Of a DNA stretch of 64,000 nt, positions 10,560 through 14,346 are shown in pieces (position 1 is the first letter of the stretch; the number at the start of each line of letters is the position of its first letter). Origin of the DNA: Ostreococcus lucimarinus. Its lineage: Eukaryota. Under the pieces are notes generated by a model, which made no database searches, had not been told where the DNA came from, and was given only the letters and a program-made list of their open reading frames with translations. Location: assembly GCA_000092065.1 (NCBI GenBank), contig CP000600.1, one strand, 5' to 3'. Made by a program: the position numbers and the translations under genes.

Positions 10560-11570
10560 CTACGCGCTCTCCGATTCCATGGACGAATTTTGCGCCGCGT
10601 AATCGAGGGTCGAGTTTTCCAGAGACGCCTCCATCTCCGCGATCTCGCGCTCGAGTTTTTCAACCTCCTCTGGAGATAAGTTACCAAGATCGCTCGACGC
10701 ATCGGTGGACTCGTCGCCGTCGTCCTCGTCGCCGTCGCTCGTCCGGATGAACGCGTGCAAGTCTCTGTTTTCGCGCTGCAACCGTTTGTTCTCGTGCGTC
10801 AGGGAAGACTTTTCACTCATCAACGCCTCCACCTGCGCGCGAAGCTGATCGACGAGCGCCACCATCTCCGGACTCGCTTTCGCCTCGCGCGCGACTTGTC
10901 GTTTCTGAAGAGCCAAGTTTTGACGCTTCAATTCCTCCGCGAGGCGCGTCGTCTCCCGCTCGCGCGCCTTCGCCGCGGCGACCTCTCGCCGCAACGCCTC
11001 CATCTCCAACGCGCTCGAATCGTCGTCCCGCGTCCCGAACGTCATCGCTCGCGGCGTTACGGGTACGTTTTCTTTCCCCGTCGGCGCTCTCGCGTTCGTC
11101 GTCGTAAACTTCGTTCTCGTCCATCCCTCGTCGTCGTCCTTCTTCCCGTCGTTCGCGTCCCACGAATCCGCCGCGCGGTCGAACACCTCCCCCAGATAAC
11201 TCGCCCCTCGCGTCAGCGCCGACACCGCCGCCGACGTCGCCCCGATCGATTTCACGATCATCGCGTCGATCGCGTCGTCCACCGCGCCCAGCGCGACCTC
11301 CGGCGTCGCCGTCGCGCCTCCGCGGCTTCGCGTCTTGCTCGGCGACCCGTCGTCGCGCGCGCGTCGCGTCTTCCCTCTCGCCCCGCCCCACGCGCTGTCC
11401 AGCGCCGCGCGCTGGAGCGCGTCGCCGTCGCGGCGTTTCTCACGCGTCGTCGTCCGCGACGCGAACCATCCGTCGTCGTCGTCGTCGCGTCGCGTCGTCG
11501 GCGTGCGATGCGTCGTTCGGCGTTCGTACCCCTCCGGCGTCATCATCGCGCTCGCGCCGCCTCGTCGCAT
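10560..11570 (-). CDS. Coiled-coil protein (hypothetical). Only the C-terminal ~335 aa of ORF 10560..12200 is proposed as real.
   Basis: C-terminal heptad coiled coil 'LEMEALRREVAAAKARERETTRLAEELKRQNLALQKRQVAREAKASPEMVALVDQLRAQVEALMSEKSSLTHENKRLQRENRDLHAF'. The first ~140 aa of the ORF is antisense to the Kazal gene at 11779..12249 and is discarded. Confidence 0.4.
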   Translation of the reverse strand: MRRGGASAMMTPEGYERRTTHRTPTTRRDDDDDGWFASRTTTREKRRDGDALQRAALDSAWGGARGKTRRARDDGSPSKTRSRGGATATPEVALGAVDDAIDAMIVKSIGATSAAVSALTRGASYLGEVFDRAADSWDANDGKKDDDEGWTRTKFTTTNARAPTGKENVPVTPRAMTFGTRDDDSSALEMEALRREVAAAKARERETTRLAEELKRQNLALQKRQVAREAKASPEMVALVDQLRAQVEALMSEKSSLTHENKRLQRENRDLHAFIRTSDGDEDDGDESTDASSDLGNLSPEEVEKLEREIAEMEASLENSTLDYAAQNSSMESESA

Positions 11571-11778
11571 CGCTTTCGGGGCTCGCGTTCGGCGCGCGCT
11601 TTCGGCTCGATCGCGCGGTTCGTCCTCGCGCGCTTCCCGCGCGTCGCGCGCGCGCGTCGCGATGCGTCGCCGCGCGCGCGCGTCGACGGACGTTGACGGG
11701 TGACGTTTCAAACACGGATCTCGAGATACGAAACGTCGTTCGTTCGTCGGGACGTCGACGCGAGAGGCGGACGCGTCG

Positions 11779-12249
11779 ATGTCGACGTCGACGGCGCTGA
11801 AACTGCTGGCGCTGCTGCTCGCGAGCGTCGCGCGCGACGCGCGGAGCGCGCGCGCGACGCCGGCGCCGGTGCGCGCGCTGGCGCCGATGGCGGTGGCGGC
11901 GGGGGCGGGAGACGGCGTCGCGAACGCGCTGGACGCGTGCCGGGCGCGGTGCGGCGACGAGGCGTTCGCGCCGGTGTGCGCGGCGAACGGGGCGGCGACG
12001 TACGCGAATAAATGTTGGGCGAACTGTGCGTTCGCGAGCGGACTGCTCGGGAGCGGCGCGCGCGTGAATTTCGTGGTGGACGGCGCGTGCGCGAATCCGA
12101 CGCGGTTTCGAAATCCCTCGTTCGCGTGCGCGACGGCGTGCGCGCAGGTGTACGAACCCGTGTGCGGCGAGAACGGGGTTTCGTACTCGAACGGGTGCAT
12201 CGCGGAGTGTTCAGGCGTGAGATACGTGCGCGGGTCGTGTCACGCGTGA
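11779..12249 (+). CDS. Secreted protein with two Kazal-type serine-protease-inhibitor domains.
   Basis: Signal peptide 'MSTSTALKLLALLLASVA'. Kazal 1 'CRARCGDEAFAPVCAANGATYANKCWANCA'. Kazal 2 'CATACAQVYEPVCGENGVSYSNGCIAEC' carries the (E)PVCGxNGxTYxNxCxxxC signature. Confidence 0.65.
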   Translation: MSTSTALKLLALLLASVARDARSARATPAPVRALAPMAVAAGAGDGVANALDACRARCGDEAFAPVCAANGAATYANKCWANCAFASGLLGSGARVNFVVDGACANPTRFRNPSFACATACAQVYEPVCGENGVSYSNGCIAECSGVRYVRGSCHA

Positions 12250-12312: not shown

Positions 12313-13377
12313 CTACGGCTTAAACCGCCACGTCTTGACCGTTCCGTCGTCCGAGGCGGACATCAGGAGGGATGAATCGTGCGGAGACCACTGGACGTCG
12401 TTCACGTCGTCGTCGTGCGCGTTTTCCACGGTCACTATCTCTCGCCAAGTTCCATCAATCTCGGCGTACAGGCGAATGGAATTATCGCCCCCCCCCGCGG
12501 CGACGACGCCGTTCTTCCCCCACGAGCAGCTCAGCACCGCGCGATCGTGCCCGCACGCGAACCGCGCGCCGAACTCTAACTCCGTGTCACAAAACCCACG
12601 CCCGTTCCACACGATCAGCGCCCCATCGCCGCCGCACGTGACGCATCTCGTCCCCCGCGATCCGTCGTCCAGCGCTCGCGGCTCAAAGCTCGCGCACCAA
12701 ACCGTCCCCTCGTGTCCCTCCCCGTGCGCGCCGTCTTCCCCCCCCAGCACCTGCGCGCACGACCAGTCGTCCCCATCCGCGTCCTCTCTCCACACTCGCA
12801 CGCTCTCGTCGTAACTCACGCTCACCAGCACGTCCTCCGTCGGATGCCACGTCACTCGCTTGACGTCGCCGCCGTGTCCGTGCAGCGCCGCCGCGCACTC
12901 GAACTCCTCATCTCCGTACCGCTCCCACACCCACACCGTCCGATCGCGTCCGCACGTCGCCAGCAACGATCCCGACCGCGACCACGCGCACGATTTCACC
13001 TCGCTCTCGTGTCCCTCGACCGCGCACGCGCGCGTCCACCGCTCGTCGTCGCCGTCGCCGCCGCCGTCGCCGCCGCCGTCGCCGTCCTCGCCCCGTCCCT
13101 CGCGTCGGTGCACCGTCGTCGCGCCGTCGAACGACGCGACGGCGACGAGGCGTCCGCACGGCGACACCGCGCACGCGCGCGCCGCGCGGTCGCACTTTTC
13201 GAGCGTCTCGACGACGCGCCAGTTTCGACGCGTCGACGCGTCGGCGCGCACGCGCGCCGTCGCGCCCGAGGATTCGCACGCGAACGCGACGCCGGCGCGC
13301 GAGGGGTCGTGCGCGACCGCCCAGACCGCGCGCGGCCGGCGCAGGACGACGGCGTCGGCGTCCAGCGCGGGCGCCAT
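12313..13377 (-). CDS. CIAO1: CIAO1 (cytosolic iron-sulfur assembly component 1), WD40 protein.
   Basis: Seven WD repeats. 'GHESEVKSCAWSRSGSLLATCGRDRTVWVWE' and 'AHDDDVNDVQWSPHDSSLLMSASDDGTVKTWRF' match the CIAO1/Cia1 family. Start taken at 'MAPALDADAVVLRR...'. The upstream part of ORF 12313..13962 is arginine-rich artefact. Confidence 0.85.
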   Translation of the reverse strand: MAPALDADAVVLRRPRAVWAVAHDPSRAGVAFACESSGATARVRADASTRRNWRVVETLEKCDRAARACAVSPCGRLVAVASFDGATTVHRREGRGEDGDGGGDGGGDGDDERWTRACAVEGHESEVKSCAWSRSGSLLATCGRDRTVWVWERYGDEEFECAAALHGHGGDVKRVTWHPTEDVLVSVSYDESVRVWREDADGDDWSCAQVLGGEDGAHGEGHEGTVWCASFEPRALDDGSRGTRCVTCGGDGALIVWNGRGFCDTELEFGARFACGHDRAVLSCSWGKNGVVAAGGGDNSIRLYAEIDGTWREIVTVENAHDDDVNDVQWSPHDSSLLMSASDDGTVKTWRFKP

Positions 13378-13575
13378 GCCGAGAGATCGACGCGCGACGA
13401 CGAGTGCGGCACATCGCGACGCCGAGACGGCGTCGACGCGACGCGCGAGACGACGACGACGCGCGCGAAACATTCGCCCTCGTCGCGACGCGCACAGAGC
13501 GACGGACGCGCGCGGAGCGACGCGCACAGAGCGCGCGAGAGATTTGAATTTTAAATCATCGCGCAGCGCGGAAAG

Positions 13576-14346
13576 ATGACGGCGACGACGACGCCGGACG
13601 ACGCGATGGAGGACGCGCGTCCGTCGCGCGACCGCGGCGCGCGCGTCGCGGAGTTGCGGGCGTCGTTCGAGAGCGCGCTGCGGGCGTGCGCGGAGCCGCC
13701 GACGGCGCAGGTGGGTGGACGCGAGACGACGCGGTGGTTCCCCCGCGCGCGACGCGCGCGCGGATGAGGAAAGGAGACGCGCGAGGCGTCGCGAAGGCGC
13801 GAGGCGAGCGAGCGACGAGAGACGATGGAGGACTGACTCGCGATGCGATCGATCGGCGCGTCGGCGCAGGAATTCATACGCGCGTTTCCGGGGTTGAATC
13901 CGGCGCACCACGCGGCGCTGTACGACGCGTACGCCGAGGCGTTGAGATCCGTGGGGCGACACGCCGAGGAGGAATTCGAGGCGATCTGCGAGGAAGAGAG
14001 CGTGGAGGCGCGATTGAATGCGATCGATGCGCTGTGCGCGGAGCGAGGGGTGATGGATCTGGACGTCGCGTCGAACGCGGCGCGCGTGGCGTACTCGGGA
14101 AAGTCGCCGGATGAGGTGGCGCGGAACACGCGCGCCGAGGCGAAGCGAAAGGAGGCGGAGACGCTGCGCGAGGAGGCGGCGGCGCTCGAGATGGCGGCGC
14201 AGGAGACGATCGCCGCGTTAGAGGCGAAGCGCGAGGCGGTTCGGGCGGCGGCGACCGGGCTGAAGACTGGCACGCAGGGCGGCGACGTCGTGCAAGACGC
14301 GTCGACGCGGTGGGCGGCGCGAGCGCCGCAGCCGCTCAAGTCTTGA
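13576..14346 (+). CDS. Hypothetical small protein; candidate two-exon model join(13576..13710, 13870..14346).
   Basis: Same-frame ORFs 13576..13767 and 13843..14346 are separated by a GTGGGT donor at 13711, a 'ggactgac' branch point and a cgcag acceptor at ~13869. Alternative: single-exon ORF 13843..14346 only. Confidence 0.3.

Follow-up and report, generated by a model that had tools for sequence, protein, structure and literature searches.

Overlapping reading frames at the locus

The locus examined here lies within a 64-kb stretch of DNA (the window, 62% G+C) and raises two questions: which strand is coding where two ATG-initiated open reading frames (ORFs) overlap on opposite strands, and what the product of the coding strand does. 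The plus-strand ORF encodes a 156-aa protein with two Kazal domains, and the minus-strand ORF (10560..12200) encodes 546 aa. An earlier note, made from the sequence alone, had estimated that the N-terminal ~140 aa of the longer ORF lie over the shorter one; the overlap comprises the first 141 Kazal codons, in agreement with that estimate. Coordinates of all features are given in Table 1.

Table 1. Features of the Kazal locus and its immediate neighbors, in window coordinates.
Feature	Position	Strand	Basis
Kazal gene CDS, single exon, 156 aa plus stop	11779..12249	+	equals XP_001422598.1 / A4SBD6
Residues 1-18 (MSTSTALKLLALLLASVA), putative signal peptide	11779..11832	+	conserved hydrophobic stretch
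Residues 19-53, Ala/Arg/Pro-rich linker or pro-region	11833..11937	+	low model confidence, strain variation
Kazal-like domain 1 (C54-C104), spacings 3/8/11/3/20, divergent	11938..12090	+	Cys pattern, Pfam, alignment
Kazal domain 2 (C117-C154), spacings 3/7/10/3/9, non-classical, PS00282 match	12127..12240	+	Cys pattern, Pfam, PDB/structure matches
Real minus-strand neighbor, 327 aa, uncharacterized, coiled-coil conserved C-terminal half	10560..11543	-	XP_001422757.1 / A4SBD5
5' extension of the 546-aa ORF, non-coding (shadow)	11544..12200	-	homologues, relatives' ORF bounds, frame geometry
Part of the shadow ORF antisense to the Kazal CDS, third codon positions in common	11779..12200	-	frame comparison
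Intergenic region, 235 bp, between divergent start codons	11544..11778	.	codon score without frame preference
WD40 protein, 354 aa, convergent downstream neighbor	12313..13377	-	adjacency kept in all relatives examined

Exact-sequence look-up showed the 156-aa product to be identical to ABP00915.1 / XP_001422598.1 of Ostreococcus lucimarinus CCE9901 and, without a single difference, to UniProt A4SBD6, where it is named "Kazal-like domain-containing protein". This identity points to O. lucimarinus or a near-identical strain as the source of the ORF, and the gene is an ordinary one that was already known, with matching RefSeq and UniProt entries that carry the Kazal annotation. The earlier description of the gene as hidden was therefore mistaken, because the O. 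lucimarinus reference already annotates it; both the 156-aa gene and its 327/328-aa neighbor are present in the reference and in most metagenome gene calls. In the public assembly collection, 208 blocks index the exact protein, and the gene is called in all of the eight long contigs listed (ENA and JGI metagenome assemblies, including a Tara Oceans marine sample). All locations listed for it are metagenome assemblies of marine or environmental origin, and no transcriptome source tag is attached to any of the 32 members of its cluster. The plus-strand ORF is almost certainly a real coding gene of the Kazal family.

The minus-strand neighbor and its long extension

The same look-up returned an annotation of only 327 aa for the minus-strand neighbor (ABP01074.1 / XP_001422757.1 / A4SBD5). 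Because the reference start is at 11543, the two annotated genes do not overlap. M211 (11570), M219 (11546) and M220 (11543) are all possible starts, of which the reference model uses M220; the proposal that this gene begins downstream, at about 11570, was thus right as to direction, and 11570 (M211) is a possible start beside the reference position. Most of the eight long contigs carry the neighbor at 327/328 aa, and the 546-aa ORF is the called product in other metagenome gene sets (P0008, P0032, P0035-37 and P0042-45). The expectation that length-based callers would favor the longer ORF was accordingly realized in metagenome gene calls, not in the reference genome.

Comparison with homologues placed the boundary of the minus-strand gene near the reference start. 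For homologues of the minus-strand protein from related lineages (P0011-P0017, ~52% identity, 348-357 aa), alignment does not begin until about residue 197 of the 546-aa ORF, and none was found to match residues 1-196. The variant closest to the window's ORF (P0009, 89% identity, 331 aa) begins at the equivalent of M220. The orthologous minus-strand ORF is itself bounded at the short start in two relatives (L010, 357 aa; L011, 348 aa), and in a third lineage (L017/L018) the coiled-coil gene and the Kazal gene are separated by a Cupin_8 gene. A Pfam search of the 218-residue extension of the 546-aa ORF yielded no match; the extension is Ala/Ser/Arg-rich and of low complexity.

Composition at the locus accounts for the length of the antisense frame. 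Local G+C across the overlapping region is 70-76%, and all three minus-strand frames are stop-free across the Kazal CDS overlap (11779..12198); therefore the openness of the 546-aa frame is uninformative. Third-position G+C (GC3) over the overlap was 0.885 in the Kazal frame and 0.90 in the antisense frame, and proved useless as a strand discriminator, since the third codon positions of the two frames coincide and the high antisense value is automatic. The 546-aa frame stays open upstream only because the locus is ~70-76% G+C and the frame uses the GC-rich third positions of the Kazal frame. A codon table was built from six confident genes of the window and codon scores were compared in six frames. 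Over the overlap, the Kazal frame scored 0.87 bits/codon versus 0.59 for the antisense ORF frame; control genes behaved alike in their sense and shadow frames, the sense frames ranging from 0.14 to 0.92 bits/codon and the -1 frame usually being among the best-scoring wrong frames. No frame was prominent across 11544..11778, which presumably holds 5' UTR sequence and a divergent promoter shared by the two genes.

That the 546-aa ORF is real, or that both strands are coding with the Kazal-like ORF secondary, is scarcely credible: its length, ATG start, high GC3, openness in the closest strain variant (L015) and selection by several metagenome gene callers have to be set against N-terminal 219 residues that all homologues lack and that match no Pfam family, short-start bounds in L010 and L011, an intervening gene in L017, the lower codon score, and a reference annotation of 327 aa. 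An overlapping coding pair would have both frames conserved in relatives; instead, the extension is missing and the gene order in L017 is different. As a test of strand, L015 was undiscriminating, with the antisense ORF open and the DNA of the Kazal domains identical. Homologues, ORF bounds in L010 and L011, and codon score agree with the suspicion voiced earlier that the antisense ORF is spurious over the overlap, and the long ORF is a GC-driven shadow there, with the plus strand coding.

Long shadow ORFs are systematic in this 62% G+C genome. The WD40 gene downstream has one as well, the frame being open for 549 aa from a GTG (12313..13962, minus strand), and 354 aa are called in relatives and metagenomes. 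The minus-strand neighbor itself has no significant Pfam domain and came from Ostreococcus-like genomes only; very strong conservation marks its coiled-coil-like last ~150 residues (…LKRQNLA.Q.RQ.ARE…LEREIAEMEASLEN.TL.YA..NSSM).

Kazal domains, cysteines and reactive sites

The whole 156-aa protein scored 38.8 bits against Pfam Kazal_1 (gathering cut-off 21, E 9e-10) and 36.4 bits against Kazal_2 (gathering cut-off 22.8), in each case over two stretches, so that the reading of the ORF as a two-Kazal protein passed the profile check with both models. Twelve cysteines are present (residues 54, 58, 67, 79, 83, 104, 117, 121, 129, 140, 144 and 154). In a six-frame scan of the 64 kb, PROSITE PS00282 (core C-x7-C-x6-Y-x3-C-x2,3-C) matched once only, in domain 2, and a relaxed cysteine pattern matched nothing apart from the two domains. 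Because the matches are confined to the 156-aa ORF, the Kazal signature is far beyond chance, as had been argued. The motif PVCxxNGxTYxNxC, given earlier for two complete domains, fits neither exactly, domain 2 (PVCGENGVSYSNGC) having S for T and domain 1 (PVCAANGAATYANKC) being one residue longer.

The two domains differ in how closely they follow the family. Domain 2 alone scored 29.5 bits against Kazal_1 and 26.4 bits against Kazal_2, above both cut-offs, whereas domain 1 alone just passed the Kazal_1 cut-off of 21 (21.5 bits) and just failed the Kazal_2 cut-off of 22.8 (22.2 bits). Cysteine spacing thus stands up to the Kazal profile thresholds for the whole protein and for domain 2, with domain 1 borderline by itself; in the L010 and L011 orthologues domain 1 was undetected by Pfam. 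Domain 1 retains six cysteines, but its C2-x8-C3 spacing and the x7 ahead of the Tyr make it fail the strict PS00282 pattern. C2-C3 and C3-C4 are each longer by one residue, and for this reason the Asn of domain 1 (N77) falls at P17' instead of P15'. N77 is replaced by Ser in O. tauri, and neither the Asn nor the Tyr of domain 1 is conserved among orthologues.

Reactive sites were assigned by taking the second Cys as P3 and the conserved Asn as P15', the other contact positions being hypervariable (PMC1236909). The predicted P3-P2-P1 residues are C58-G59-D60 in domain 1 (P1 codon 11956..11958) and C121-A122-Q123 in domain 2 (P1 codon 12145..12147), where P15' is N138. The combination of P3 Cys and P15' Asn is found in domain 2 and not in domain 1. 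Kazal disulfide connectivity is 1-5 / 2-4 / 3-6 (PMC1236909). By the sequence and fold criteria examined, domain 2 is a canonical Kazal domain of non-classical type, and domain 1 is a divergent, degenerate member of the family that is borderline when taken alone.

Predicted structure

The AF2 model was of modest overall confidence (mean pLDDT 65.5, pTM 0.40). The Kazal fold, comprised of a short beta-hairpin, one alpha-helix and a C-terminal strand, is present in both domains (E66-68/H78-86/E99-101 and E128-130/H139-144/E149-151; pLDDT 72-86). Rhodniin was the top Foldseek match to the model (prob 0.94), and leech-derived tryptase inhibitor (LDTI) superposed at 0.6 A over 33 residues with a TM(target) of 0.76 and prob 1.00; Foldseek E-values were weak, at best 1e-2, because the Kazal domain is tiny. 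The Foldseek matches listed are all Kazal inhibitors, besides follistatin-family and related proteins that bear Kazal modules. A sequence search of the PDB was in accord, returning LDTI at E 1.5e-6 and rhodniin across both domains.

Orthologues, synteny and population variation

Profile and library-wide searches recovered about seven orthologue clusters at 46-55% identity, one of which contains O. tauri XP_003083085.2, named "Kazal domain". All orthologue-bearing contigs have a G+C content of 57-66%, typical of Ostreococcus. The check proposed earlier, a search for orthologues in other Mamiellophyceae, was positive for Ostreococcus-like lineages; no named Micromonas or Bathycoccus orthologue was among the profile and library-wide matches. 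Gene order is conserved together with the gene. In L010, L011 and L017/L018 the orthologues (169, 167 and 161 aa, respectively) directly adjoin the same convergent WD40 gene, and the Nnf1, enoyl-CoA hydratase and Na+/H+ exchanger neighbors are likewise preserved. The WD40 and Kazal stop codons are 63 bp apart, and the 3' UTRs of these convergent genes must therefore abut or overlap. In the 57% G+C lineage, a Cupin_8 (JmjC-like) gene and a 94-aa ORF separate the coiled-coil and Kazal genes (L017, 3645-4754; L018, 3312-4421); both are absent from the window and from L010/L011, a local gain or loss in an otherwise conserved synteny.

Across nine orthologues the invariant residues are all 12 cysteines, P65, W80, P127-V128, E131-N132-G133 and N138. 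The P1 residue is D, N, A or E in domain 1 and Q, A, L or M in domain 2, and P2 and P1' vary as well, consistent with the known hypervariability of Kazal contact residues (PMC1236909). Within the O. lucimarinus population, the protein varies by single substitutions, with the Kazal domains almost unchanged, and residues 19-53 differ most between strains. In comparison with L015, all 37 substitutions in the ORF (11779..12246) fall in the first 138 nt, which encode signal and linker, and none in the remaining 330 nt of the Kazal domains; the flanks differ as well. This skew could reflect strong constraint, recombination or a chimeric scaffold.

A library-wide phmmer search matched 2420 representative proteins at E<=1e-3, dominated by multi-Kazal proteins of bacteria, apicomplexans, animals and green algae; named examples sampled include Bacteroidota T9SS proteins, Toxoplasma, a crustacean agrin-like protein and the volvocine alga Tetrabaena. 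The Kazal family is ubiquitous and the search gave no clue to the origin of the gene. The compact two-Kazal form was found here only in Ostreococcus-like genomes. The nearest non-Ostreococcus match in the first search was a 119-aa two-Kazal protein (P0007 / L014, 39% identity) on a 63% G+C metagenome scaffold; it starts MIGVALLLAAC, which looks like a lipoprotein-type signal, and is possibly bacterial.

Several aberrant variants were also recovered in metagenome assemblies, namely a frameshifted Kazal ORF on a 259-kb ENA contig (P0003), Kazal C-terminal parts joined to unrelated N-termini (P0004 and, in L013, P0005), and the C-terminal half of the coiled-coil gene joined to a WW-domain N-terminus (P0010). 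These are probably assembly chimeras or errors. P0004, P0005 and P0010 were considered as transcript evidence or as alternative N-termini, and P0005 was set aside, being from a short metagenome scaffold and most likely an assembly chimera.

N-terminal region and predicted localization

The mean Kyte-Doolittle value is 2.89 over the hydrophobic h-region LLALLLASV, and a nine-residue hydrophobic stretch directly after the start Met is kept in orthologues, with mean values of 2.3-2.9. A small-x-small site, SVA, precedes R19, and cleavage of a signal peptide after SVA is possible. In the Ala/Arg/Pro-rich region that follows, residues 24-43 were modeled with pLDDT <50. The protein most likely enters the secretory pathway, judging from this N-terminus; whether it is actually released from the cell is an evenly balanced question, and the Arg/Ala/Ser-rich region after the hydrophobic stretch could also belong to a targeting peptide of organellar or bipartite type.

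The O. tauri reference model XP_003083085.2 (P0165, 142 aa) begins at an internal Met (MERGEALAPV…), and a 167-aa metagenome version (P0111) has a hydrophobic N-terminal segment (MESVTKLLALLALA…) that is missing from it. The O. tauri model looks N-terminally truncated.

Comparison with known Kazal proteins

Of the known proteins, A4SBD6 is identical to the 156-aa product, and O. tauri XP_003083085.2 is 51% identical and shares all 12 cysteines; the 142-aa O. tauri model is without the hydrophobic N-terminal segment, unlike the 156-aa protein. Outside the genus, a close match for domain 2 is LDTI (PDB 1an1, 1ldt and 2kmo), a single non-classical Kazal domain that aligns over 36 residues (E 1.5e-6) and is 48% identical to the domain 2 model in the 0.6 A superposition. 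The two have in common a short C5-C6 segment and the core PVCG-[SE]-[DN]-G-x-[TS]-Y-x-N-x-C-I-A-x-C. They differ at the reactive site, where LDTI has P1 Lys and C1-x1-C2 and domain 2 has P1 Gln and C1-x3-C2, and LDTI comes from an animal, consists of one domain and has a known target, unlike the algal two-domain protein. Rhodniin (PDB 1tbq/1tbr), the two-domain thrombin inhibitor of Rhodnius and the top structural match, aligns with residues 61-148 across both domains. Both are small tandem-Kazal proteins, with secretion predicted for the algal one. Rhodniin, however, is an insect anticoagulant whose second domain binds the thrombin exosite, and its relative domain orientation is unmatched by the model (rmsd 13 A over 112 columns).

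Among microbial eukaryotes, Kazal proteins of the oomycetes Phytophthora and Hyaloperonospora are among the nearest named non-Ostreococcus matches. [quoted passage not shown] EPI1a is atypical through loss of Cys3 and Cys6, whereas domain 1 of the algal protein retains six cysteines and has altered loop lengths. Furthermore, the EPI proteins act in the plant apoplast, a setting unlike that of the alga.

Kazal domains are not rare in green algae, and a survey of plant peptidase inhibitors that included O. lucimarinus contradicts the view that unicellular algae seldom have such proteins, reporting I1 Kazal inhibitors in Chlorophyta, multidomain in algae (PMC4189545); the multi-Kazal relative in Tetrabaena is a further counterexample. 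In the survey, Chlamydomonas and Volvox had the highest Kazal domain numbers, whereas Micromonas had no Kazal inhibitors (PMC4189545), and Chlamydomonas Kazal proteins are also mentioned elsewhere (PMC8643629). The family is thus already counted in the O. lucimarinus genome, although the identifier of the gene is not listed in the supplements of PMC4189545 because the trees used single-domain proteins only. The Kazal proteins of Chlamydomonas, Volvox and Tetrabaena belong to the same family and phylum as the Ostreococcus protein and, unlike those of land plants, are multidomain (PMC4189545, PMC8643629). They have up to 10 domains, in contrast to the compact two-domain form in Ostreococcus.

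Proposed function

The locus is probably best explained as an annotated single-exon gene for a secreted canonical serine-protease inhibitor, overlapped by a spurious antisense extension. The predicted product is a small soluble protein of four parts, namely a hydrophobic signal-like segment, an Ala/Arg/Pro-rich linker, a divergent domain 1 and a canonical domain 2. On entry into the secretory pathway, three disulfides per domain would form, and the folded protein would act, in the manner of LDTI, rhodniin or the oomycete EPI proteins, as a tight-binding inhibitor by the Laskowski 'standard mechanism', in which the exposed loop after the second Cys (P3 Cys, P2, P1) would dock in a substrate-like manner in the active site of an S1 or S8 serine protease. 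Domain 2, with P1 = Gln123, would be the more probable active module, and domain 1, with P1 = Asp60, may either inhibit as a second unit or be degenerate. Asp and Gln at P1 are no pointer to a known strong specificity.

The inhibitor might instead be kept inside the cell, in the endomembrane system, vacuole or plastid lumen, where it would restrain the proteases of the alga itself and have no part in defense by release against grazers, parasites or bacteria. This is doubtful, but several observations are in its favor. Ostreococcus is a naked picoplanktonic cell, from which a freely secreted 14-kDa protein would presumably be diluted at once; the Arg/Ala/Ser-rich stretch that follows the hydrophobic segment is similar to algal organellar presequences; and the near invariance of the mature domains within the population suggests housekeeping constraint. 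Against retention, the protein ends …GSCHA and its orthologues …GRW, …AR and …GA, none of which is a C-terminal retention signal, and the P1 residues vary between species as would be expected if targets evolve.

The same reactive-site residues bear on whether the protein inhibits proteases at all. Many Kazal-like domains are non-inhibitory, among the matches found those of follistatin, RECK, SLCO transporters and agrin-like proteins, and the degeneracy of domain 1 and the unusual Asp and Gln at P1 would suit a disulfide-rich binding or structural module of the follistatin/agrin/SPARC type. Such a role is improbable, as small free-standing inhibitors (LDTI, rhodniin, infestin and CrSPI) gave the best matches in both sequence and structure, a signal-like segment followed by Kazal domains only is the architecture of secreted inhibitors such as oomycete EPI1, and the P3 Cys and P15' Asn are conserved while contact residues vary (PMC1236909). 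The Kazal protein is thus likely to be a genuine protease inhibitor. The ecological role suggested earlier, defense against grazers or parasites, is speculative. A narrower version of the secreted-inhibitor reading, in which the protein is restricted to Ostreococcus and its P1 residues diverge in an arms race with serine proteases of grazers, algicidal bacteria or viruses, is more speculative still than a non-inhibitory role.

Implications

For genome annotation, the locus is an example of a GC-rich genome giving rise to long antisense shadow ORFs through common third codon positions, and prokaryote-style callers applied to marine metagenomes sometimes choose the 546-aa artefact over the real 327-aa neighbor. 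Beyond annotation hygiene the significance is small, and the findings are those expected for the Kazal family. The protein itself is an uncharacterized, genus-wide two-Kazal protein of Ostreococcus. If the arms-race reading were true, it would be a defense effector of the smallest free-living eukaryote. Whatever its role, the target protease, if identified, could inform the control of extracellular or endomembrane proteolysis in picoeukaryotes.
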